Source of the DNA: Squalus acanthias
Taxonomy: Eukaryota
NCBI GenBank assembly: GCA_030390025.1
Contig: CM059431.1
Span: forward strand, 121,584,001 to 121,648,000
DNA length: 64,000 nt
Direction: 5' to 3'
This document shows positions 25,930-55,860 of this stretch, one piece after another; the first letter of the stretch is position 1, and every line of letters starts with the position of its first letter. Both the position numbers and the translations under genes were made by a program. The notes beneath the pieces were generated by a model that saw only the letters and a program-made list of their open reading frames with translations, was not told the DNA's origin and searched no databases.

Positions 25930-27400
25930 AAAACAGAAAATGACCTTTCATCAGAACTGGAAAAAGTTAGAGATGTAATGGCCCAGAAATTCGAGTCTCC
26001 GGCTTGCCGCGGGGGTAAGGATCGCACGCGCTCTTACCTACCGCGCCTGCCGTTGTGTTTTGGGCACACAGGAACTTCGGGTCGTTGGCCTCTCCCAACT
26101 GCTGGCGCGCAGTGCTTGCGTGTTCCAGGGGCGCAGTTAGTGCGATGCGACCCCTGGAATCACGTGGGCCATGGAGAGCCAATGGCAGCAGACCATCTTT
26201 CATTCATAGATTTGACAGGAGACCTGTCAAATCTGTGAATTGAAATCGGCCCCAAAAGAACAGCTAAACTTAAAATAAATTTTAAAAAAACATCACATTT
26301 ATAAAATAACTATAGTTAAATAAATTAACCACTTTAAACAAAAATTTAAATTTTTGAAAACATTAAAATACTTTTTAAAAGTGATAAAAATAAACTTACC
26401 TTTCTTAAAGTATCTAAAAAAGATAAACCTGTTGAAAAAATTTTAAAATTATACTTAATTAACCACTTACCTTGTTCAAAAGGGGTCTTACGCCTCCTTT
26501 TTATTAGCGTAGTATCTTCAATACTTACCCTCGCGTAGAAATCTGAAAAAAAATCTAAGTGTGCTGCATGCGCGCAGCCTCTAGCGCGCACGCGGTTCAC
26601 CTAGGAACCGCCCCCTTCACCATACCGAAAGTTTTGGTTTCCCGCGCATGCGCATTGCATGCAGGAAACCGGCACTTCGGGAAGCAATACGGGTGAGTAC
26701 GGATTGTGTACTCACCCGGGAATTGCCGAATTTTTGGGCCAACAGGTTTTAAGCAAGTGCAGAGGCAGGGAAAGGGGGAGGAGAGGAAAGAACGAAAGGG
26801 AAGGTCTGTGATAGGGTGGAAGGCAGGAAAGATTGAATGACAAAAGTGATGATGGTGCAAGGCAAAAGGGGGTGGTAATAGGACAATAAAAGAAACAAAA
26901 GATGGGTCTAGAGGAGCTGAAAATGACAAATGCAGAATCATTACCAGCACCTGCTGCCCGAAAAAATGGGCATGCTGGTTATGATGTCAGTGACAGTCTG
27001 GGAGAAAATGGCTTGATGTTTGGTGGTGTGATCATGGTCCAGGAGGAGGTGTGGAAGAGTTGGTGTTCAGCCTCAGCAAGGTAGAGCTTGGTTCGACGAA
27101 CAACAACAGCATTGTGGTTGGACTTGAGAGAACGGAGTGTTGCAAGTTCATAGGGAGGTAGGTTAGAGTGAGTGAGTGGAGTAGTAAAATTGAGATGGCC
27201 GATGTCACACCAGCAATTCCCAGTGAAAAGATCTAAAGAGTTTAAGAAGCCAGAGGGAGGGGTCCAGGCGAAACGAGAATTCTGAAGATGGGAGAAAGGG
27301 GGGAAGAGTCCTGGCCAAAGAAATGGACGCGGGAGGTGAAGACGATGGGAGAAGAGCTCACTATCGCGTTTGGAGCACAAAATTCATAAAATTACCCCAT
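25930..27400 (-). mobile_element. Deleted Penelope-like element remnant, interrupted by MITE B copy 2
   Basis: WTPPSG..SLDLF...HSNLPPYELATLRSLKSN..AVVV...YLAEAEHQL (ORF 26979-27380). Confidence 0.7.
25980..26740. mobile_element. MITE family B, copy 2
   Basis: TIR GGCCCAGAAATTCG/CGAATTTTTGGGCC, flanks AAT/AAC. Confidence 0.85.
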
Positions 27401-27502
27401 AGTCCCAGTTCTGTAACATCAGCAAACTCTGTGCTGGGAATGGCTGGGAGCAAGCCCCAGCACGCTGAGTTGGCTGCATGTATATCAGTTGATTTATATA
27501 AT

Positions 27503-28180
27503 GGCCCGAAAATTAGACCTAATGCGGGAGAGTACGCATTGTGTACTCTCGCGTATTAGGTCCCGAAGTGCCGGTTTCCTGCATGCACTGCGCATGCGCG
27601 GGAAACCGGCACTTCGGGTATTGCGAAGGGGGCGGTTCCTAAGTGAACCGCGTGCGCGCTACAGCTTTTACACATAAAGAAAGCAGGCGTAAGACCCCCT
27701 TTTAACAAGGTAAGTAGTTAATTAAGTATTATTTAAAAAAAAATTCAACAGGTTTATCTTTTTTAGAGACTTTAAAGAAAGGTAAGTTTATTTTTATAAC
27801 TTTTAAAAAGAATTTAAATTTTTTCAAAAATTTAAATTTTTGTTTAAAGTGGTTAATTAATTTAACTATAGTTATTTTATTAATGTGATGGCTTTTTTTA
27901 AATTTAATTGAGGTTTAGCTGTTCTTTTGGGGGCTTGTTGTATTCATAGTTTTGACAGCACTTCCTGTCAAAACTATGAATGAAAGATGGTGTGCTGCCA
28001 TTGGCTCTAACTGGCCCACGTGATCCCAGAGGTCGCATCGAATTAACTGCGCCTCTGGGACACGCACACACTGCGCGCCGGCACCAGGGAGAGGCCCAAA
28101 ACCATAAAGGTAGGCGCGCAGTGCGATATCGCGGGGGATCCTTACCCCCGCGGCAGCCATCGAACTCCAATTTCTGGGCC
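27503..28180. mobile_element. MITE family B, copy 3 (inverted relative to copy 2)
   Basis: TIR GGCCCGAAAATT/AATTTCTGGGCC, TSD AAT. Confidence 0.85.
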
Positions 28181-28611
28181 AATGAATATTCCCTGCGTAG
28201 GTTTACTTTGTGCCAGCAACTGGTCTAATGGGGCAGGCAGAAAATCTGCCTAGCACAGTGGTGGGCAAAATATGGCCCAGGTGCCGTATCCAGCCTGCCA
28301 GTTCATTCAATTCAGCCTGTTGGAGCTCGAGCTGCATATTTGTCTTGCGAGGGGAGGTCGCTCAGGGTTACTGCGCCTGGGAGTAGTCTACGACCCAGAA
28401 CTGGGGCAATTAATATAAAAGCTGCTGGGACTGCTGCTATATGTCTGATGCAGATCTGCTTCCCGTTTGTGCTCTGGAGCCGGCCTAATGTCTGTCTGTG
28501 GCTCTCTCCCGCTCTGGCTCTGTGAACCACTTTTCTAAAATCCGTCACTCATCGCTGGCTGGTGGGGGCGCTGCTGTGCGTGCGCACTGGACGCTCCTCC
28601 TCCGTCGAGTC

Positions 28612-29302
28612 ATGGCTGCACATCTCGGCGACTCTTAGTTTTGCCGAAGAAAGAGACCGGCGCTGCACCTTTCCTCTCCCGGACCTCATCCCACTTTGAG
28701 CCCTGAACAAACCCCACACTCCGAGCCCTGAACAAACCCCACACTGAGCCCTGAACTCACCCCACACTCCCAGCCCCGAACTCACCCCACACTGAGCCCT
28801 GAACTCACCCCACACTGAGCCCTGAACTCACCCCACACTCTGAGCCCTGAACTCACCCCACACTCCCAGCCCTGAACCCACCCCACACTCCGAGCCCACC
28901 CCACACTCCGAGCCCCGAACTCACCCCACACTACAAGCCCCGAACTCACCCCACACTCCCAGCCCTGAACTCACCCCACACTCCCAGCCCTGAACTCACC
29001 CCACACTCCAAGCCCTGAACTCACCCCACACTCCGAGCCCTGAACTCACCCCACACTCCCAGCCCTGAACTCACCCCACACTCCGAGCCCTGAACTCACC
29101 CCACACTCTCAGCCCTGAACTCACCCCACACTCCCAGCCCTGAACTCACCCCACACTCCGAGCCCTGAGCAAACCCCACCCCGAACCCTGACGAATCTTA
29201 GTTTTACCAAAAAAAGTGTCTTTCCTCTCCTGATACCCAGGCAGGGGAGTTCTCATCGCCGTCTTCGACACGGAAGTGGATCCCGGAGCACAAGGACTCC
29301 AG
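28612..29302 (+). pseudogene. TPP2: Captured TPP2 exon 1 fragment split by a minisatellite
   Basis: ATG 28612; LPKKETGAAPFLSR (28641-28682); [27 protein letters not shown] (29240-29302); vertebrate TPP2 N-terminus as recalled: [39 protein letters not shown]. Confidence 0.88.
28686..29190. repeat. Minisatellite, 25-bp unit CACTCC(C/G)AGCCCTGAACTCACCCCA, about 20 copies
   Basis: Direct tandem periodicity, no unique spacers. Confidence 0.95.
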
Positions 29303-30703
29303 GTAATGCGATTGTAGCTCAGGCCTGGCGAAGCCTCGGGCTCCCATACTCAGCACATTAAAAAGAGAACACCTCTCGCATCGGAGGCACCTCAGACTCG
29401 AGCTACGTAGACTTTCAGTACAACATGTAATCGATCAATTAATCATTTCATTCATTTTAGTAACGGAAGATTTTACTATTTTACACTACATTTTGTGTAT
29501 TTAAGATAGTATCTGACTACTATCTGAATTTCTGTTTACTATTATGCAATGTTTATGTTTATGCGATGTTTCCTCTCATTTTTTTTGTCCCTTTAAATTT
29601 GCTGCGTAGCCGTGCATGCACAGTATCTCTTTCGCAGCAGGAGCTGGTGAGCCGCCTGTGCGGGACCTCGAGATTGGTGGGTGACCGCGCGGCCATGCAT
29701 CTTAGGGGGAACATTTCTGTGCGGGCCTCAATAGTTCACCAAAACTTGTTAAGTTGCTCTCCAGCCCAAGTAATTGCCCACCCTTGGCCTAGCAGCTCAA
29801 ATTTAAAGGGTTGTGGCCACTTAACAATAACTTGCTGCATTATGGGAGAAATACTAGGGCTAAGCTGCACCTGAGTACAAGTTGAGAAGAGTGCTTCTGA
29901 AGTGCGCTCTGCCTGATGGTACCTGAATGTGTCATTGTTTGCTGGTTACCATGGCTCCATTGCTCCCCCAGTCCTTTTGAAGGGACTTGTGCAGGTGAGG
30001 AATGTGGATCACTACTACAAGACTGAGAGGTTGTGGCCGCTGGCTGCAGTGCCTTCTGCTTGATGTCCAAAGTCACCAGTCAGAAGACCTCCTGCCTTGC
30101 CGATACTCCTGATCTATCTAGAAAAAAAGAAATTTAGCTGTTTGAAGGTTGGTGTAGATTGTTGGTAGCCCTTCTCTGATCCTCCAATCTGAGGGCCTGG
30201 ATGTAGCCTCAAAGGCCCAGTTGCAATAGGCCGGCTGGCTTCTGGGTATCCACCAGACAGAAGGCCAGGAAAACGAGGCAGGAAGCATATTGATAACACT
30301 CCACCCCTATTATCATACTATTTGAATGCATCAATTCTTCTCTAGGGGGAAATCCCCAGAAGCATGCAAAGGTACTGGATACCTTGTGGAACAGGTCTCT
30401 GCTCCTGTTGCCTCTTCTTTGAACCTGGGAAGTAAACATATTGAGGGAGCAAGGCAGAAAAGAATCAGTCCCATTGCTTCATATATTGTAAAGTTTCAAA
30501 ATATAATTGAAATATTTGTCAGGCTTTGCCAAGGCTGTTGGGGTTAAGGGAAGGGAGATGTGCCAAGCAAATATGCATTGAAAGGAATTCCAATGTGGGG
30601 AATGCACATTTACAAAATGAATGGTAAATAACTGTCAGTTTACCGGCCTTTCAATATTTTTCTAACCACAGCTCAAAAGGTCATGTGGACTTATGTAAAC
30701 TTT

Positions 30704-33261
30704 GGGCTAGAAAATCATTATAGCCAAGAAATGGGCAGTGTTAGACTAAAAATGGTTAAGTTGCGCGAACCTGAAAAATCATCTAGGCTGCACGCAAAAT
30801 TCGTTCTCACTTCTCATTAAAATGATTGCAGTCATGATTCTCGTCTAAAAAGCCAAGCTAATTGGCGTTACACTGAAAAGATGGAGCAATATCGAGGGCA
30901 GTCTAAACGCAAGTAATGATTGCCATAGGCTTTTTAAACTACTTAAAGGGAAGGCTCATTGATGCTGCAGCACCTCATACTCAGCATTGTTGGGTGTGCA
31001 ACTGCCTCAACAACCATAAGAAAATGGGCAAGGAGAAGTAGCACTTAATTACAAATCCTGATGGCAGATTGTCGCCCCGATAAAACTTTGGAGGCATTGA
31101 TTTTAGCAGTGGAGGGAGACGGGTGATCCTGTATCCGGCAACTGGCAAGAGGTCCTTGACACAAGTCTGCCAGACTATGTGGAGAGAGGTGGCAAACCAC
31201 GTCATGGGCAGCACTATGCTCTCCACGACCCACACCCGGTGCAGGAAGAAGTTTAACGACCTCACACGGGTGGTCAGGGTGAGTGAATGCTTCAACAAAT
31301 GCTACATACCACCATCTGTACCACAAGCTTCACACACTGCTCAATGCACCACACCCCCAGCACTCACCCACCAACAATCTCTACCTAGCACCCACATCTC
31401 ACACCTTGCATGCAATGACAGCTATTCAACTATGGCAGGCACAAGGGTCATTTGTTATTAGAATTCATGTGATATGTGTGATATGTTTATAGATAAAATT
31501 ATTAATTGTGTTTAGAATATTTTGTGGTCTCTCTCATTTCACCTTTGCGCTCAGGAGGACACTGTGATATGCTATGAGACAGTGATTGTATGATGGGGAT
31601 CTGGTGTGCTACGAGGATCTGGGGTTTCATTCATGCGATTGGAGTCTGATGAGCCGGTCATGGACAACCCATCTGGAAGGCCAATTGTTTTGCTGTCTCC
31701 GCCCTCCCTGTCCTCCTCATCCTCCTTTGTCTTGTCATCCTCCTAAAGTGGTCCCACAATCCCTGCTGGCAAGGGCGGTGCCCTCATGATGGCCAAGTTG
31801 TGGAGCATGCAGCAGACCACCATGAAATGGGACACCCGCTCAGCCGAGTACTGGAGGGCTCCTCCTGAGCGGTCAAGGCAGTGGAACTCTTTCTTCAGTA
31901 GGCCGATGGTCTGCTCGATGATGTTCCTGGTGGCAGTATGGCTCTCATTATATGAGTGCTGGGCACGAGTGTTGGGGTTGCGGAGGGGAGTCATGAGCCA
32001 GGTGAAGAGTGGATAGCCCTTTATCTCCGAGCAGCCACCCACGAGCTTGACGTGGTGATGGGAAGAGTGCTGGCAGACCGATCTGGCGCAGGATGAAGGC
32101 ATTGTGGCTGCTTCCAGGATAGCGGGCATTGATACTAAGGATTCGCTGTGTGTGGTTGTACACCAACTGCACATTAAGTTACAGAAGATCTCAGGATTGT
32201 TATGCACTGCCCGCAAAGCCATGTGGGTGCAGACGATGGCGTCCTGCACCATGGGAAAGCCCGCTATCCTGGCAAAGTCGGCACACTTGTCTTGCTTCTC
32301 TCTGGTGATTGGGAAGCCAACGTAGTCCCTTCTCCTGCTGTAGAGAGCCTCAGTGACCTCCCGGATGCAGCAATGGACGGCGAACTGTGAGATGTTAGAT
32401 ATGTTTCCTGCTGCAGACTGGAAGGATCTGCTGGTGAAGAAGTTGAGGGCCACGGTGACCATGCCTGCCACTGGGAGAGCTGTGGTCGTCCTGGTCTGAG
32501 GCTGGAGGTCTGGTTGTAGGAGGTGGCAGAGTTCTGTGACCACCTCCTTCATGAAGCGGAGCCTTCTAATACACTGCTCCTCATTTAATCGAAGGCAGGA
32601 GAAGTGATGTCGAAAGACCCTAGGAGGGTAAGGCCTCCTGGTGAGAGCCCTGATGGCCCTCCTCCTCCCTCTGCGCACATGTTCCTGTCTTTCTCGCTGC
32701 CTCCGCTCCCTCTGCCGTAGATCCTGGAGGGTGAGGTCCACTGCCAGTATAGCCCGCAAGAGTTTTAGCAAGTGTTGTAGGTTGGAGCTTTTCAGAAATA
32801 ATTATGGAGTTTTGTACTTGCCACAACACTCCCTGATACCAAAGAACCTTGAAATGACTAAAGTAAACTCTTGCAGTAGCAGGAATTAGAACACAGCCAC
32901 TCAAACTTCACAAACCTGTCAGATGCGAGTGATTGGTGAGGATCCCTTTAAATCGCATTGCTGGAGCCGGCTTCATGCTGCTGCCGCCACCTCAACCTGT
33001 CGTTGTTTTCTCCAGCCGGTAAGTTCATTGACTGTAATGAAGGTGGGAGATTGGGCATCAAGTCAGCGTTGCACACTCACTGATGTCATGATCTCCATGA
33101 TGGCGAGGTCCCTGATGATCCAGTTCAGCGGCAGCGCTACCGGCAAGACCGATATGGCGTGCAGTGCTGGAATCAGCATCAGGTGTCGTTTAAGCTCTCA
33201 ACGGTGTTTTACCGCCCTCTCGTGGCACTAACGTGTGGTGCAAACCGCACACATTTCCGCC
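30704..33261. mobile_element. PIF/Harbinger element remnant (Myb + strand ~31020-31440; transposase - strand)
   Basis: MWREVANHV...TRCRKKFNDLTRVVR|GTGAGT; ends approximate. Confidence 0.8.
31743..32771 (-). pseudogene. Harbinger DDE transposase (HARBI1-like), frameshifted
   Basis: RRPYPPRVFRHH, GFPMVQDAIVCTH, YPGSSHNAFIL, WLLGDKGYPL, YNESHTATRNIIEQTIGLLK..F.CL, CCMLHNLA. Confidence 0.9.
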
Positions 33262-44854: not shown

Positions 44855-46289
44855 CAGTGGTGGGCAAAATACAGCCTGGGGGCCGTATCCGGCCCGCCAA
44901 TTCATTCTATCCAACCCGCTGGATGGGCCAGAAATAGAACGCGAGCTGGAGCTCGAGCTGCACTTTAGTCTGAGTTGAGTCATGGCTGCTCATCTCGATT
45001 ACTCTTTTACCGAAGAAAGTGATCGGTGCTGCGTCTTTCCTCTCCCGGTACCTAGAGTATGGCGGCAGGGGAGTTCTCATCACTGTCTTCGACACGGGAG
45101 TGGATCCAGGAGCACAAGGGCTCCAGGTAATGCGATTGTAGCTCAGGCCTTGCGAAGCCTCAGGCTCTCGTACTCAGCACACTGAAAAGAGTCGGCGGCC
45201 CCGCAGACTCGAGCCACTCTGCCAAACAGCCACATAGACTTTCAGTACAACATATAACCGAAAGATCAATCATTTATTCATTTAGTAACGGAAGATTTTA
45301 CTATTTTATACTACATTTTGTGTATTTAAGATAGTAACTGACTAATATCTGAATTTATATTTATAATTATTGGGAGGGTAGAAGTGGGAGTGATGATTAA
45401 AGCTATGAGTTGGCTTGTTTCAAATTTACCAATTTAACACTTAGCTCTCACCAATGATGTTAGTGGGGTTATTAATTTTTGCACAATTATACACTCGTTT
45501 TAATATTATCCCACTTAATTAGCATAGTGGAGGTATAACTAAATGGACCCGGGTATATTGGATATTACATTCACTGTTTTTAATTTAAGCCCTTTTTTCC
45601 CATACCATGAACAATTCAAGCTTATTGTCATGACTGGAAGAGGGATGTAGAGATTTATGTCGTTGGTCAGGCCCAGTAATAAATAGCACTCGGGGAAGAA
45701 ATGCGTATTATCATGGTGCATTGCTTGTGGCCATTCTCAAGTGAAAGTCGGTGAACTATAGGTGGCTTGGCTTTTCTCAGGAGTGATCGAACCTTGACAA
45801 TGAACAAGCCAATTTGATGGCTGATCTGGGTCGCAATTTGTGGTATAAATCCTGTTCTGAGCCACCTAATTGTTTCTTAGCGAGGTATCAAAGGCATCAA
45901 AGTAGCACTTTCATGTGCAATTTTTAAAAGGTTGTATAAATGATTTTATCCTTGATTGTGCATTATACTATGTTCATAATTCCCATCGGAAGCAAAATCG
46001 ATCACTCATTTTCCACTACAAGAATTAATTTAGACCATTTGGAATAAACAGACCGAGAACCTTTCAATGTGATTCGTAAATCTGTATCATGTCCGTTAGC
46101 ATGTTAATTAATAAGTGTTGTTATTTTTATTAAATGTGGAAACAAAATGAAGGGTTCTTTATACAATAAATGCCGTAACAAGTTTTAGTGATAGCTGTTG
46201 TTCACACAATTCATTTTATGTGTGCGGCCCTCAACAGCTCACCAAAACTTGTTCAGTGGCCCTCCAGCCCAAATAATTGCCCATCCCTG
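44855..46289 (+). mobile_element. Non-autonomous hAT element B carrying TPP2 exon 1
   Basis: TIR CAGTGGTGGGCAA/TTGCCCATCCCTG, perfect 8-bp TSD CCATAAAG; shares ends and cargo with 28256-29786. Confidence 0.9.
44982..45126 (+). pseudogene. TPP2: Captured TPP2 exon 1 (ATG out of frame after a small deletion)
   Basis: 45004-45126 translates [41 protein letters not shown] followed by GTAATG donor. Confidence 0.9.
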
Positions 46290-48882: not shown

Positions 48883-48936
48883 ATTGGCAGCAGGAGAGTA
48901 ATGTTTTAGACCCTAATTTTGAATAGGCGAAATGTG

Positions 48937-50664
48937 ATGGATGAGAGGGTAGCCGACTATGTGTTTGGGAAGGTTAACTTAACCAAAAAGTGGATAAGTG
49001 ACCTACTGATGGATAAGCGTCTGCTAGACGCCGCCATCAAGTGGACAGGTAGTAAAGATCATAAGAAGTCGGTAGAGAAAGCGGTCTGGCTGATGTGCTA
49101 CAAGAAGCAAGTCCAACTTTCGGACCAGGTCATTGCAGCACAGGCAGCTCAGATCAGGGAATTGGAAACTGAGATGGAGGAAAAGGTTACGGGAGGACAG
49201 AGACTCATTGCATCATTGAATGCGTTACATCAGGAACGCCAAATAGTAGCTAACCACCACGAGGCTAAGATTGATTACCTAGAATGTCAGGTCACGGAAG
49301 CAAAATTAAACGAGGGTAGGATTAGAGAACGGTGTGTCTGCCTAGCTAACCAGATAAAAGCCCAGGAAGAAAGCTTGAAGGGAGTTAGGGCGGCATACAA
49401 GATGGCCCTCGAGGATAGGCATGAGGGAGCCGACCACAGTGTTTGCCAGAGGGAGATAGAGAACCTAAGGGAGTCCCTGAGTAAGGCAAACGGCTTGGTG
49501 TGTCTCATCAGCCCGTCAGCGAGCCAGCCACAGGTGGGTAGGGAATTCCCAAAATCCCTACCGGAAAAGGCAGAAGAGGTATCTGCCACTGCGCCCTCCG
49601 CGCCACCCAGCTATACGGCAACCTGGGTAAGGGAGGAAGTGGTGGAAATAGAGAAGAAGGTTCCCGAGGTAGGACAATCCCCGGAGGTAGTGTCGAGACC
49701 GAGACCGATGTGTCCGCTCCGAGGTCACAAGAGAGGCCCGAATGCGGACAATGGGGAAGACGGGGATATCCTGAGCCAACTTGTATTGCCCCACAGCTCA
49801 CACCAGCTGAGAGCAATGATTAGCCATGTACGGAAGCTGTCCGAGTCAGTTGACCCTTCCGTACATTTTAGAGAAGTAGAACAGACCGCAGCGATTAATG
49901 GCTGCGACGACGAGGAAAAGACCAAAATGTTGCTGTTCTCTTTAGATAGCTCGATCCTTCAGTGTCTCTCCGACGAGAGCAAGAAGGGAAATAAAACCTA
50001 TGGGGAGTTACGGGACGAGGTCCTAGAAGTGTTAGGGGCGGATGACGAAGGTCCGTTCTTCAGATTGAGTCAGACCGTACAGATGGAGGGAGAACCCCCG
50101 AAGGTTTTCGCCGACAGACTGTGGCCAGTATACCAGCGTAGCTGCCCAGGTGCGCCAGCGCGCACCTATCTGGGCGGCGCCGGGAAAGCTCATTGGCTCA
50201 GGTGCATGGTAGCCAACAGCTTGCCAGCCGTCAGGGAGCAGGCCAGTGCGTGGTTTGATCCCACTAACCCCGCCACAATGGAGGAGTCTGTCCTAAATCG
50301 ACTCACCATAGGGTATCGGAACACTAGGAGCATGGGAGCGCGTCCCCTTAAGGGAAAGGTGCATGAGGCAAAGCCCGCAGCTCCGGCTCAGAAAGAGTGG
50401 CATCAGGAGGGAAATCGCGCCCCACAAACCAGTGGTGTTTGTTACGGGTGCGGGAAGACAGGTCACTGGCGTAAAAACTGCAGGAATCCCTGGAAGGACT
50501 CCAGGGACAAAGCTCCCGCAGTCCGAACCCAAGCGCCTGTCTCCGAGAAAGGAGCTGGTGTGCCTATCTATCCCGATGCGATAGAATCAATGTTAGGAGC
50601 CATGCGGTCTCTCATGACCTCACACGGGGAGGTAGCAACAGCCCCATACAACCCAGACTTCTGA
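48937..50664 (+). CDS. gag: Gag polyprotein, open (first ATG 48937)
   Basis: N-terminal coiled coil, PSAPPSY late motifs (49594-49614), capsid-like Q.EGEPPKVFADRL, CYGCGKTGHWRKNC knuckle (50440-50481). Confidence 0.9.
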   Translation: MDERVADYVFGKVNLTKKWISDLLMDKRLLDAAIKWTGSKDHKKSVEKAVWLMCYKKQVQLSDQVIAAQAAQIRELETEMEEKVTGGQRLIASLNALHQERQIVANHHEAKIDYLECQVTEAKLNEGRIRERCVCLANQIKAQEESLKGVRAAYKMALEDRHEGADHSVCQREIENLRESLSKANGLVCLISPSASQPQVGREFPKSLPEKAEEVSATAPSAPPSYTATWVREEVVEIEKKVPEVGQSPEVVSRPRPMCPLRGHKRGPNADNGEDGDILSQLVLPHSSHQLRAMISHVRKLSESVDPSVHFREVEQTAAINGCDDEEKTKMLLFSLDSSILQCLSDESKKGNKTYGELRDEVLEVLGADDEGPFFRLSQTVQMEGEPPKVFADRLWPVYQRSCPGAPARTYLGGAGKAHWLRCMVANSLPAVREQASAWFDPTNPATMEESVLNRLTIGYRNTRSMGARPLKGKVHEAKPAAPAQKEWHQEGNRAPQTSGVCYGCGKTGHWRKNCRNPWKDSRDKAPAVRTQAPVSEKGAGVPIYPDAIESMLGAMRSLMTSHGEVATAPYNPDF

Positions 50665-51453
50665 CTGGAACCGGTGCAGCCTGCCTACCTGTGTCCCTTT
50701 GAAAGACACGCACAGGAGGGGGCCTCCTGTAAGGAGGCCAGGTTAAAAGAGCAGGCCTTGCGGGAGGAGAACGCCCGCTTAATGGGGAAAGTAGATGGGC
50801 TAGAAGGGCAGCTTAGAGACATAAAGGCAGCCTACAGGGTAGCCAGGAGCCGGGAGTATGAGGATTTAAACCATGGGCCCTGTGAGGAAAGGATAAAAGG
50901 TCTGACCCAAGCCCTATCCAAAGCCAGAGGGATGGTTTGCTCAACAACCCCGGCGGAATTCACCACCCCGCAGTTGCAAGCCATGGTAGCAGAGTTGCCC
51001 AAACTAAAACAGAATAGAAATCTGCAGCCTCCAGCAGGCGAGATTACACAGAATGCACAAACAGGGGCGGTGGCCTGTCATAGGGGAGGGGCCAAACCTG
51101 CGAGTGGGGACTCTCAGCCCCGGGTAGAACCGCAGGGCACACAGGCCGGTAAAGCAGCCTGTGTGAGGGGAGAAGACATTTTGGAAAAGTGTAGGATCTT
51201 TTCTTGGTCTTGGGATTCAGATGAGGAAGAGCTCGGAGAGCTCGACCAAGTTAGTGACCCGGTCGGAGAGGTGGTGGGGTCGGAGGACGGAGGTTTCGCC
51301 CCCGACCCAAGCATAGGGGAGATAGGGATTGCAAGTGGAGTTCCACTTACTGGGGAAACAAGTAGGGTGGAGTCGAAACCGCAGATCCCGAGCCCAGGGG
51401 GGCGGAGCCAGGGGAGACAGAGCCGGCGGCTGTGGTGGGACCACAGGCCGTGA
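50665..51453 (+). CDS. ORF2, in frame with gag after one TGA; contains a diverged second Gag coiled-coil segment
   Basis: Same frame as gag; 50734-50940 aligns ungapped to gag 49297-49503 (25/69 aa identical by hand). Confidence 0.7.
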   Translation: MEPVQPAYLCPFERHAQEGASCKEARLKEQALREENARLMGKVDGLEGQLRDIKAAYRVARSREYEDLNHGPCEERIKGLTQALSKARGMVCSTTPAEFTTPQLQAMVAELPKLKQNRNLQPPAGEITQNAQTGAVACHRGGAKPASGDSQPRVEPQGTQAGKAACVRGEDILEKCRIFSWSWDSDEEELGELDQVSDPVGEVVGSEDGGFAPDPSIGEIGIASGVPLTGETSRVESKPQIPSPGGRSQGRQSRRLWWDHRP

Positions 51454-51973
51454 CGGTGGAAGTCTCGGTTCCCTGTCCGTTGGTCCTGGAAATCTTGCCC
51501 AAGGTAGCCCTCCGTAGGTCAAGTCGGACACCCCAGCCCAGGAAGTTGTGGCCAAATCCCTCGTACACCCCCAGGCGTAAGTTCAAGGCAGCCCAGGGAG
51601 ATCCCAGTCCCAGCACAGCGTCGACAGGCTGCGGCAGATCAAAGGAAGGGGTCAGTTCCCCCCCGCCACTGGGAAAAGCTCGTGGCAGCCTTCGCAGACT
51701 TTAGGTAGGCCGCCCTGGGAACGGGCGGCGCTGTACAGTTAAGTTTAGGATAAGTTTAAGTTTATAGTTTTTTTAAGTTTGGTAAGATTGTAGTTTAATT
51801 TTTAAGTAACTGGTAAAATGATGGGAGTTAGTGATAGGAATAGTTAAAGTCTATCCAGCATACATGTCTTTTTACGTGAGACGAGGTCAAGGGACCCGCT
51901 CACCCTTCACAAAGGCCAGAGACTCTTGGGAGGCTGGCTACATCATTTTATCTGATCACAGGAACCAGGAAAG

Positions 51974-53814
51974 ATGGAAAGGATTCTGATAGTGCTCGCA
52001 ACGATCGGATATGGATTGGCCTATCGGGGCCTCACCAAGGATGTCGTTGTGTTTGGTTGCTCTGGGGACACGGCCCCCATCGCGACGGATGGGACCGGGT
52101 AGCGAGAGGCTGAGGAAACCGTCACTTATTTCCACAAGGGAAGGTGGCCGGGATGGCTGGGAACGAATTTGACGGAATACTCCAGCGCATCCGGATTTGC
52201 CTACAAAGAGACTTCTTCACTGTATCCCAGGGTGAGGATCATTGCACCCAGAATCAGCGTCACCGTCGGCAAAAGGATTTGTTTGACATGCAATGGGAAG
52301 GTCCCATTGAGCCGATGGTGGTGGTTACGGAAGTTAAGCAAGACTATGAGAAATTCCTCGGTCGAGTGGGAGCGATTGGGTAACAATACCCATCGGACAA
52401 TTACGGGGACTAATGGACAATTGAAAGTCTGTTGGGACAAATGGTGGGAACCGAATGAGGGAATATATGTGTGTATGTGGGATCAAAGTACGTTTGCCCC
52501 AAGGGTATATCCATATTTTTCCTACGACAGTGGCAGGATGACGGGAAAGGGATGAGGTGGGATCTCAGCACCAGGGGGTGTGGAGCTCCATTCTCTCCGA
52601 TCCCAGTAAACGCCACTGAACTCATCACGCACCCACACAAGTCTCCGCCCACGATTCCGGTGGCTTTGGCTCAGGAGGAAGGGTGCCCTAAAACCACTAA
52701 GGGGCCCGGGAATGGTCTGGTACTGGTGCCAACAGATCAGATACTATATCAAGGGGTACATTACGCGGTGGCCTCGGTGATTTTAAATCTCTCCGAGGTG
52801 CATTTACCAGAGTGGTGCCCCAAAGAAACGGAAAAATTGTACCAGGTCCTGTTAACAAACATGTTCAGGCAATTTTATGAGTTTGATTTTGCAGAGGTTG
52901 ACAAAACAAGCTTATACACCACACCACACGAAGTTTTGGGTCAGGTGGGGAGACAAAGAAGGGGTGTTGTGAACGATGTGTTCACTGCTTTTAATACGGG
53001 AACATCTGTGGTCAACGCTCTAGACAATGTGGAGCTGCAGACCCAGATCAACGGTTTAAAAACACAGTTAAAAAGCATCCTCAGAAACGAGAACAAGGTA
53101 GTAGGGTCTGATTTACATGAGGACCAGGCCATAACACTACACTTAAAAGAGATTATAGCAGAGCTGGAGAAGCATGCGAGAACGGTAAATGCCCTGATCA
53201 GGGAAGATCGGAACGCATCCGATCAAGCTGCGCAGAACGAGGTGTGCGTACTATACGGGGTGTGGTTACTGGGCGAGGGCCGCAGTAATTTGAAGGATTT
53301 AAAACAAGGTTTGGTCCCGTCCTGGATAAGTAACAAACACCTGCAGGCGCTCCACCCTTTTCAGAACGCATTAAGCCCGTGCCAGCTCAGGCTAGCCTCA
53401 GAGGCATACCCAGTCCCCGTGGACTGCGGACGGTCAAATCATACTATCATGGGGATAGTAGTACGGATGTCGGTGTTGGGCGACACAGCAAAGCCCGCCC
53501 CGGTGTACCGGGTGGAGAACATTGGTGTCATTCAGGGGGGAGCCCACATTCGCTACGCAGCGGTCCCACCTTACGTCATCCGCTGGGAGCAAACGATGAC
53601 AGGTACCGACCTTTCGGGTTGTCGTGGCTGGGGAGCACACATCATCCTGTGTCCCCAGCTCTTGAATGCCTTTTTAACACCACAATGCGGGTTCAGAACG
53701 GCTGGCGCGAAGCCCATGAATTGCACCATGGAAGCAATGACACAAGATCATATGCCCCCACAGGTGGCATACATAGGGGGTGGAACGTATTGCATTACCA
53801 CTGCAGCGCATTAA
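51974..53814 (+). pseudogene. env: Envelope glycoprotein: signal peptide, Ig-like domain, class I F-like fusion protein; TAG at 52100, frameshift ~52500-52550, C-terminus truncated
   Basis: MERILIVLATIGYGLA; VTVGKRICLTC..WWW..GQLKV..NEGIYVC; furin RQRR (52951-52962) + GVVNDVFTAFNTGTSVVNAL + heptad; Cys-rich region; no TM anchor. Confidence 0.85.
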
Positions 53815-54846
53815 TACCATGCCCTTATGCTCATCTATTGTCATAACAGAATCTGTTGTTAGCCAGCCCACCCCTTTCTTTACCGCTTTTTATAAATTCT
53901 TTGCTATTACGTTTATACAAGCTACAGGATTTATTTTTACACTCCTTCTTTTCCCTCTTTATTTTCCTGGTTTCCACGAATAGACATTAGAAAATGGGAC
54001 ACATGCTCTATTTGAATACTAAAGTCAAATTATTTGAAATTTTAACCTGCAATGAAATTAAAATTCATTCAAATTTGCTTGGAGAATTTTACTTATTTGG
54101 ATGACTTACTGGAATCCCTGATTCATCTTATTCAAGCTAAAAGTACAATTAAACAGAAATGAGTTAAAACAGCCAAATTGGAGGCATCTTGCTCAAAGTT
54201 TTGGAAACAAAATGCCAGCAAGAAGCAAATGTAAGATCTGCAGTGAAAATCTCCCGAGTCAAAATTAGAGTTTTGTGATGCATACAAATATGAAAGAAAG
54301 CGAAAAGAAGTGAAATACCCATGTTTGACCAAGTGGTTTACTTTCCAATAAGCCGGTGGATAGTCACAGTGTGAAATCAGGCAGGAGGTGGGTTAGGAGA
54401 TTCAGATTGGCATATTCTAGAGTTGGGTAGGGGTCGGGTTAGCAGAGGGTGCAGGACACCTAGGTGTGTTCACATACACAAATCTTTGAAGGTGCCAGGA
54501 CAAGTTGATAAGGCTGTTAAAAAAGCATACGGGATATACTTGGCTTTATAAATGATGGCAGCAGTGCCATTTTGGAGCTCACACTCCAGCCCATGCCCTC
54601 TCTTAACCTCACACAGCTGAACACGCGTTAAGCAGTATGAAGGACCCCCACCAGTGCTATTTAAAGGGATCAACAACTACTTACAAGTTAGATGCTGGTT
54701 GATTTCTTCTGGCTGTTGTTATGATTCTACAAGTGTTTGGTGCTTTCCATAGTTCTTTCAAGTTGCTGAAGTCGACAGGGAGTGGCAGGCGCTGAAGGAC
54801 TTTTTCCTGACTTCAAGGCATCTGCACGAATTAGTTTCTCCCAGAC

Positions 54847-55860
54847 ATGGGTGCACTAGTTGGCATTCCCCTTGGAATACAGCATGACTGGGAGAATGAG
54901 CAGAGGCTGCACAGAGCAGGACAAGCTACTAGAAGAGGGAGGAGGGGGAGATGGGTTCTCAGCTGGAGGCTATATCCATCCAGGGTGTCCAGGGAGCAAT
55001 TCTCCTACCTGAACCTCAGCGAGGAACAATGTGTGAGATGTCTGAGCTTCAATAAGGACCTCCTCACTGTAATCTGTCACCTGCTGCAGCCACAACTGCA
55101 ACCTCAATGGAGGGCAAGGACCTCATTGCCAGTGGCTGTGAAGGTGACCATGGCGATCAACTTTTATGCGTCTGAATCCTTCCAGGTGGGAGCTGGAGAT
55201 ATTTTCAACATCTCGCAGTTTCCCGTCCACTGTTGCATAAGGGTGGTCATTGAGGCTCTCTATTCAAAGAGAACTGACTACATTTCATTCTCTCTGGTAG
55301 AGACCAGCAGGTGGAGTGAGCATACAGGTTCACTAGGATTGCAGGCTTCCCCATGGTGCAGGGTGCCATTGACTGCACGCACATTGCTTTGCGAGCGCCG
55401 CATGTCAACTCTGCCATACACCGGAACCGAAAGGGATTGCACTCTCTCAACGTCCAGCTGGTGTGCGACCAGAGGTAGCGAATCATGCATGTCAATACCC
55501 GGTATCCTGGCAGCAGTCACAACGCCTTCATTCTGCAGCTGTCCGCTGAGTCTTCTGCATTTGAGCCACCATGGCAAACCAAAGGGTGGCTACTGGGCGA
55601 CATGGCTCCTGACTCTGGTGAAGAACCCACACACACGTGAACAGCATGCATACAATGAAAGTCATGCTGCCACATGAAATGTGATAGAGTAGACCATAGG
55701 CATGCTGAAACGATGATTCTGCTGCCTGGACTACTCTGGAGGAGCCCAGAAGTACTCGGCAGAGCAGGTGTCAAGATTCGTCGTGGTCCACCGCACAACC
55801 TCGCCATTATAAGGCAGCAGTCCTTGCCACCAGCTATACAACGAGCAGCTGAGGAGCAGG
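54847..55860 (+). pseudogene. Harbinger transposase (HARBI1-like), disrupted
   Basis: YPSRVSREQFSYLNLSEEQC, GFPMVQGAIDCTH, YPGSSHNAFIL, YNESHAAT. Confidence 0.9.

Follow-up and report, generated by a model that had tools for sequence, protein, structure and literature searches.

The element at positions 28256-29786 of the window (the whole stretch of 64,000 nt of Squalus acanthias DNA analysed here; contig C7 of a 3.71-Gb assembly) belongs to a real Pack-hAT-like family that is present in hundreds of copies and carries pieces of at least two host genes, TPP2, which was taken as DNA, and MYBL2 (B-Myb), which was taken through RNA. Our overall reading, to which we assign a probability of about 0.8, is that a non-autonomous hAT-like family collected host sequence stepwise and was amplified in trans, that its MYBL2 sequence was acquired via RNA, and that its copies are now neutral passengers. 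The parts of this element, together with a second family member encoded in the same window, are as follows.

28248-28255, no strand: left copy of the 8-bp TSD, GCCTAGCA, with TA at positions 4-5
28256-28321, plus strand: left element end, comprising the TIR and a subterminal region common to all subfamilies
28322-28347, plus strand: TPP2 remnant covering about -34 to -10 relative to the ATG; this branch has lost the founder's start at -66
28349-28603, minus strand: antisense 5'UTR of MYBL2 (B-Myb) exon 1, the rest of a spliced exon 1-2-3 insert whose coding part is deleted
28604-28682, plus strand: TPP2 from -8 to about +84, with the ATG at 28612 out of frame and a stop after 8 codons
28698-29191, plus strand: minisatellite of 25-nt units (20.4 units), a subfamily trait
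29190-29302, plus strand: duplicated start of exon 1, then the 3' half of the exon with the codon for the subtilisin-type Asp, up to the donor
29303-29538, plus strand: TPP2 splice donor with the initial 236 nt of intron 1, which align with the host gene at 79% (E 1.2e-61)
29562-29714, no strand: nested MITE (about 150 nt) bounded by 15-nt TIRs of its own
29718-29786, plus strand: right element end with TIR
29787-29794, no strand: right copy of the 8-bp TSD, GCCTAGCA, 8/8 identity to the left copy
44855-46289, plus strand: second family member, of founder type, with a perfect 8-bp TSD, ATG at 44982, donor at 45127 and a 145-nt exon

The window copy is composed of insert C (the MYBL2 insert), the MITE and the minisatellite, with deletions. 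Its flanks are identical at all eight positions, in agreement with the first-pass annotation, which had proposed hAT-like TIRs and a perfect 8-bp TSD; the TIRs themselves are imperfect, with 13 of the 20 terminal bases matching. The ATG (28612, within a start context at 28607), the donor GT (29303-29304) and the two TPP2-like peptides (LPKKETGAAPFLSR at 28641-28682 and 21 amino acids at 29240-29302) lie where they had been claimed to lie. However, the peptides are split by approximately 560 nt, occupied by the 25-nt minisatellite and a short internal duplication, and the ATG is out of frame with both of them. The leader, previously described as CpG-rich, is so only mildly, with a CpG o/e of 0.41-0.68 compared to 0.46 for the window.

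The captured exon encodes the N-terminus of TPP2, including the subtilisin-type Asp, as had been suspected. In a sister copy without the minisatellite, 40 contiguous amino acids match Drosophila TPP2 (3LXU, E 8.5e-10), and their best named match is shark TPP2 at 93% identity; the 21 amino acids of the window copy, used alone, have TPP2 as their sole match (E 0.46). The host gene has an open coding exon 1 of 162 nt at C7:79.129 Mb (locus L037), which uses the same donor as the element, and the longest copies of the family align with it between -66 and about +700, counted from the ATG. Comparison of the sequence following the donor with TPP2 intron 1, which had been named as a check, gave a match over 236 nt (79%, E 1.2e-61), indicating that the TPP2 cargo was taken as DNA. 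Neither of the two conditions named in advance as refuting the TPP2 reading thus applies. Capture at the DNA level, with the intron retained, by a TIR element that later transposed is fully supported, and its copy number is far higher than could be told from the window sequence.

Capture of a housekeeping promoter together with the exon is not supported. TPP2 sequence extends upstream only to -66, with about 35 of these 66 nt remaining in the window copy, and the rest of the leader is antisense MYBL2 5'UTR. When the 781 nt upstream of host exon 1 were used for a genome search, only the last 56 nt matched 39 other places (among the best 40 of 416 candidates), so that the TPP2 promoter proper is not carried by the copies. 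The TPP2 promoter was rejected as a source of the leader, 3.5 kb of upstream sequence yielding one match of 18 nt (E 0.004) and one of 14 nt (E 0.52). Likewise, no match was found in the 8.8 kb before exon 2 of a second TPP2 paralogue, whose exon 1 lies outside that stretch. The possibility that host TPP2 lost a 300-nt ancestral segment which the element has kept is ruled out by the MYBL2 source of the leader and by the existence of insert-free founder copies. The second paralogue, located at C6:131.00-131.10 Mb, is a diverged multi-exon gene that matches shark TPP2 at about 50-82% per exon. We also observed that exons 1-2 of host TPP2 (C7:79.12-79.13 Mb) are separated by 1.78 Mb from exon 3 onward (77.18-77.34 Mb) on the same strand, due to either an assembly ordering problem or a real rearrangement.

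A genome search with the left 435 nt of the element returned 349 candidates, the best 40 of which comprise the window copy and its dispersed relatives at 76-85%. Copy number in the genome, for which a count had been suggested, is high: a 22-nt donor word allowing up to two mismatches occurs at a minimum of 328 sites, the host gene included (4 for the control), and a 31-nt right-end word allowing up to three mismatches marks at least 583 right ends (0 for the control). The TIR ends are conserved across copies. Both ends were found in 33 of 74 loci, and the TSDs agree at seven or more of eight positions in 23 of these 33 loci, being perfect in 12. The ten loci with poorer agreement comprise six composites with an outer left end (described below), one locus with a 6/8 match, one that is off by one base, and two that are unexplained. 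TA is found at positions 4-5 in 22 of the 23 verified TSDs, and the T2/A7 pattern in four of the 23.

Non-autonomous elements of the hAT Charlie/Buster type have short TIRs starting with CAG and an 8-bp TSD with a central TA, and we take TA at TSD positions 4-5 to be the criterion for the Buster/Charlie branch of hAT. Judged by its ends and TSDs, the family would fit the non-autonomous hAT-like elements of Charlie/Buster type, from which it differs in that its interior is largely host-derived. As regards the features of Pack-TIRs, neither parental gene, TPP2 (L037) or MYBL2 (L045/L046), is flanked by a TIR element, and no element ends were found beside the captured stretch in host TPP2. The multicopy feature, several copies with distinct TSDs, is present. 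The element is covered, at a likeness of at least 80%, by contigs from three further labelled organisms; contigs of X8 span both the TIR-leader and leader-exon joins, and X1 spans the leader-exon join. In addition, contigs of all four runs compared skip the element at its ends, with the strongest joint having an 8-nt overlap (X1, X4). The presence of the element and of the leader joins in the contigs of other organisms indicates that the family and its C subfamily are not private to this assembly.

The second copy in the window (44855-46289) contains TPP2 contiguously from -66 to about +700, with no MYBL2 insert and no nested MITE, and serves as the empty-site control. It lies only 15 kb from the copy at 28256-29786, while the family averages approximately one copy per several Mb. 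The two copies belong to different subfamilies, which argues against a simple local hop. Insert C is present in 31 of 74 loci and insert B in 19, while the other 24 lack any 5' insert; these counts are biased since 30 of the 74 loci were fetched with a C query. Insert D is found in 10 C loci. Minisatellite units are likewise found in 10 C loci, related units being present in 10 of the 30 loci fetched with the window copy. The 8-bp TSD of the nested MITE is intact in founder-type copies, and its empty site is seen in three loci. B and C copies share a shortened intron end at TPP2 +401, and both lineages also have members with the long intron, suggesting either recombination between copies or recurrent deletion.

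Insert B, of about 200 nt, is located at TPP2 -12, some 5 nt from the MYBL2 insertion point, and occurs in 40 copies or more; a genome search with it gave 40 best places, all of which span most of the element query. It contains (L042:1554-1749 and 18 further loci) words that we presume to resemble ZNF143, CCAAT and YY1 sites. Insert D is an AT-rich segment of about 430 nt within TPP2 exon 1, accompanied by a short duplication (L013, L007, L011, L024, L026 and five other loci). No source for inserts B and D was found among the loci compared. A composite subfamily (L041, element strand 772-1439; L115-L120) has an outer left end and 670-830 nt placed before the TPP2 element. Its outer segment has a promoter-like start and a GTGAGT donor, and may represent either the first exon of another gene or the 5' part of an autonomous element, no source having been found for it; the outer TSD was recovered in two of six cases (6/8 and 7/8).

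The 530-nt internal segment does not continue TPP2 intron 1, as no match was found across the whole intron, and a 61-aa open stretch in it has no Pfam or protein match that would mark it as a transposase or another gene; its source was not found. A cargo-free parent carrying this segment was also sought and rejected: 17 of the 19 loci with the segment carry TPP2 within 1.15 kb, and of the remaining two L109 resembles a deletion derivative, while L110 is preceded by a different repeat.

The leader of the window copy (28349-28597) matches the 5'UTR of MYBL2 exon 1 in antisense orientation, at 72% over 278 columns (E 5e-37). In three other copies (L009, L014, L023) the leader contains about 200 nt more, and this extra part, read on the opposite strand, encodes a Myb domain (Pfam E 3.6e-8), with chondrichthyan MYBL2 accounting for 10 of its 10 protein matches. 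In host MYBL2 (L045/L046), introns with GT-AG borders separate the exons, by 5.6 kb between exons 1 and 2 and by 6.9 kb between exons 2 and 3. The three exons are contiguous and intron-free in all five long copies, two of which form a segmental pair; exons 1 and 2 meet exactly in L047 and L048, and small deletions are found beside their junction in the other long copies. The fact that these exons are joined without the 5.6- and 6.9-kb introns indicates that the MYBL2 cargo came through RNA. A spliced antisense cargo of this kind is unusual for a TIR transposon in animals.

The MYBL2 insert starts about 300 nt before the MYBL2 ATG, stops within exon 3 without poly(A), and is placed at TPP2 -8/-6 with a 3-nt duplication. 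The five long copies share a single end base in exon 3, directly against TPP2 -6, and most C copies have no MYBL2 coding part. The insert shares precise intron removal with canonical LINE-made retrocopies, but differs from them in keeping the 5' end, in having no poly(A) and in being accompanied by only a 3-nt duplication. NRF1-like and E2F/CHR-like words are often located at or upstream of start sites, and as the MYBL2 piece includes such words, its 5' edge may not be purely of mRNA origin.

In order to determine the coding state of the copies we located both the start context and the donor, which was possible for 52 loci out of 77, with two pairs of segmental duplicates counted in. The 162-nt exon length of the host was found in none of the 52 scorable copies; the commonest length is 145 nt, corresponding to the loss of 17 nt between two TCTTTT repeats within the exon. 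Since this deletion is typical of the family, the founder was already frameshifted before the catalytic Asp. The frame from ATG to donor is open in 6 of the 52 copies through later indels, and in four of those it is the TPP2 frame. The ATG is retained in 43 of 52 copies and the GT in 46, while about 44 and 46 are expected at 5.5% per site, so that their survival corresponds to the neutral expectation and gives no sign of selection. Divergence from the family majority and a tree were obtained for 42 of 74 loci over the region +90 to +400. Outside CpG, the copies diverge by 5.5%, the window copy by 3.8% and the host by 6.2%, and the tree of copies is star-like. This indicates that capture took place shortly before a burst of amplification. 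We infer that the copies today are neutrally decaying passengers that make no TPP2 peptide and are most probably inert.

The structures of the copies reveal a stepwise history. The founder, of about 1.45-1.6 kb, holds genomic TPP2 from -66 to about +700 next to approximately 530 nt between TIR ends, and it already had the 17-nt deletion in exon 1; the capture itself may have occurred when repair or replication at a transposon break switched template. This founder then spread by transposition to hundreds of sites, where it is flanked by TA-centred TSDs of 8 bp. Further inserts, visible as structures in the copies, founded the subfamilies: the nested MITE, the 200-nt insert B, the insert C of about 500 nt, the 430-nt insert D, the minisatellite, and the outer left end with about 670 nt. 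For insert C, a break located 6 nt upstream of the TPP2 ATG may have primed reverse transcription, which would have begun within MYBL2 exon 3 and run off close to the 5' end of the mRNA, after which the end would have been rejoined with a 3-nt duplication. RNA-templated repair of breaks is a published topic (PMC12065846), and the edges of the MYBL2 insert resemble a trace, left in the germline, of reverse transcription that was primed internally at a break. Since intermediates have been preserved, the copies reveal in which order sequences were gained and lost.

Alternatively, the MYBL2 piece might have been copied as DNA from a processed pseudogene, or it might be the remnant of a full-length retrocopy whose 3' part and poly(A) disappeared after its insertion in the element. 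Both routes have been described for bat Helitrons (PMC4224331), and a later loss would agree with the frequent internal deletions in the family and with the absence of the coding part from most C copies. However, a genome search with the spliced MYBL2 coding part returned seven candidates, all of which were scored and proved to be five element copies and two host exons (C11), with no free retrocopy among them, and the end at one exon 3 base, directly against TPP2 -6, common to the five long copies also speaks against these routes. We regard these routes as rather unlikely, though not negligible.

The MYBL2 sequence contains words that could confer regulation. Among the 31 C-type loci, the full E2F word is found in 8, a CHR-like word in 17, and an NRF1-like word in 9. 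The retention of these words is no more than neutral decay allows, that of the E2F word being below the neutral expectation of about 14 of 31. The window copy has kept the CHR-like word (28530-28538) and lost the E2F word. In the 5' region of host MYBL2 the E2F word is followed by three bases and then TAGGAA; this hexamer is the CHR of the mouse B-myb promoter, which acts with the adjacent E2F site and binds DREAM (PMC4176359). It is conceivable, although improbable, that the family is a repeated collector of gene 5' ends (TPP2, MYBL2, possibly insert B and the outer exon-donor segment) at the level of both DNA and RNA, that each gain founded an amplifying subfamily, that B-Myb E2F/CHR elements were seeded back to back with a splice donor, and that some copies are now cell-cycle-regulated promoters or alternative first exons.

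The first-pass annotation had gone further in proposing that mobile promoter-exon-donor cassettes could be spread in this way. The cassette sequence has indeed spread as DNA copies, but the TPP2 promoter upstream of -66 is absent, the exon is frameshifted and retention of ATG and GT is neutral. The stronger version of this proposal, that copies initiate transcripts which are then spliced to neighbouring genes, in the manner of HelibatN3 and NUBPL, appears quite improbable. It draws on the GT kept in 46 of 52 copies, on the MYBL2 E2F/CHR-like element of C copies (E2F in 8 of 31, CHR-like in 17 of 31), the mouse counterpart of which binds DREAM (PMC4176359), and on the exon trapping by HelibatN3 seen in cells (PMC4778049). 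Nevertheless, TPP2 sequence upstream of -66 is lacking, ATG and GT are retained at neutral rates and the E2F word below them, the window copy is without the E2F word, and the long open frames of the window (150 aa or more) include mobile-element frames and no recognised host gene. No RNA data set was listed as containing the window copy. Contigs on the sister copy L003, all from other organisms, gave no usable donor joint or loose end, since a flanking repeat dominates their output; neither observation speaks for or against expression.

That the element is a copy of the TPP2 5' end made by segmental or tandem duplication and lying by chance between repeats, for which local TPP2 exon-1 duplicates seemingly annotated in another shark (P0003, P0005) would offer a parallel, has next to no chance of being correct: it is already refuted by the distinct TSDs, and is further contradicted by hundreds of dispersed copies with identical ends, by a host gene without element ends beside the captured stretch, and by the lack of the family deletion in the duplicates annotated in the other shark. 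In that shark (P0003, P0005, P0121-P0125) the annotated short genes consist of an intact TPP2 exon 1 and a foreign exon, and several of them are located on the tpp2 chromosome. They are probably local duplicates; as candidate members of the present family they were rejected, since they lack its 17-nt deletion.

Plant Pack-MULEs and other Pack-TYPE elements unite pieces of several unlinked genes within a single TIR element, favouring GC-rich 5' ends, and usually have low copy numbers and unspliced genomic cargo. Pack-type capture had been described as best known in plants. Animals too provide documented cases (PMC8277862; PMC4224331). Tan et al. 2021 report 370 animal Pack-TIRs in 100 reference genomes, with hAT as the commonest carrier (208 of 370), and describe them as nearly all single-copy and arising without transposition (PMC8277862). 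These elements and the present family have in common that host genomic DNA lies inside a TIR element. Four Pack-TIRs in the survey are multicopy, among them Pack-hAT-N8_XT (CAPSL 5'UTR), which has several copies with distinct TSDs as observed here; the illustrated multicopy case has three copies, compared to the 328 or more donor-bearing sites of the present family (PMC8277862). The family is accordingly a counter-example, at hundreds of copies, to the single-copy view of animal Pack-TIRs. The survey discarded intron-less cargo by design, and a cargo such as MYBL2 exons 1-2-3 would fail its filter (PMC8277862). The word shark does not occur in the main text of that paper, the supplementary species of which could include cartilaginous fish.

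The closest precedent that we found is provided by bat Helitrons (Thomas et al. 2014, PMC4224331; Grabundzija et al. 2016, PMC4778049), which have the same architecture. In these Helitrons a first exon and intron were amplified to a thousand copies and retrogenes were gained secondarily, the examples being HelibatN3 (NUBPL), HelibatN217.1/N22 (TMBIM4 and a TACC3 retrogene) and N211/N424 (SRPK1 and an RPLP0 retrocopy), with secondary amplifications of 6 to 26 copies (PMC4224331). Unlike these rolling-circle elements, the carrier here has TIRs and 8-bp TSDs and belongs to the cut-and-paste transposons. All four retroposed cases in Helitrons are 5'-truncated and have poly(A) and a TSD, whereas the MYBL2 insert contains the 5' end of the mRNA and has no poly(A) (PMC4224331). 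Promoter function was demonstrated for HelibatN3 (PMC4778049); for the present family it is hypothetical. A TIR element that amplifies a fragment of spliced mRNA belongs to a class that was filtered out by the survey (PMC8277862) and that we found reported, within the sources consulted, only for Helitrons (PMC4224331). A literature search found no TPP2- or MYBL2-carrying transposon of this family; a Repbase or Dfam consensus, outside the scope of that search, may exist. The large number of copies permits a direct test of whether promoter-like cargo favoured amplification or was co-opted later.

The nearest named proteins to the TPP2 and MYBL2 cargo are those of sharks and rays. All long open frames of the window (at least 150 aa) that could be recognised belong to mobile elements. 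At 48910-53814 there are frames of retrovirus-like gag and env-like type, and LINE, Penelope-like and Gypsy-like frames also occur; the frames at 31743-32801 and 54835-55677 are presumably Harbinger-like transposases. Just left of the element, at 26080-28103, there are long nested inverted repeats with arms of 141-194 nt, which probably represent a foldback element or two opposed copies of another repeat.
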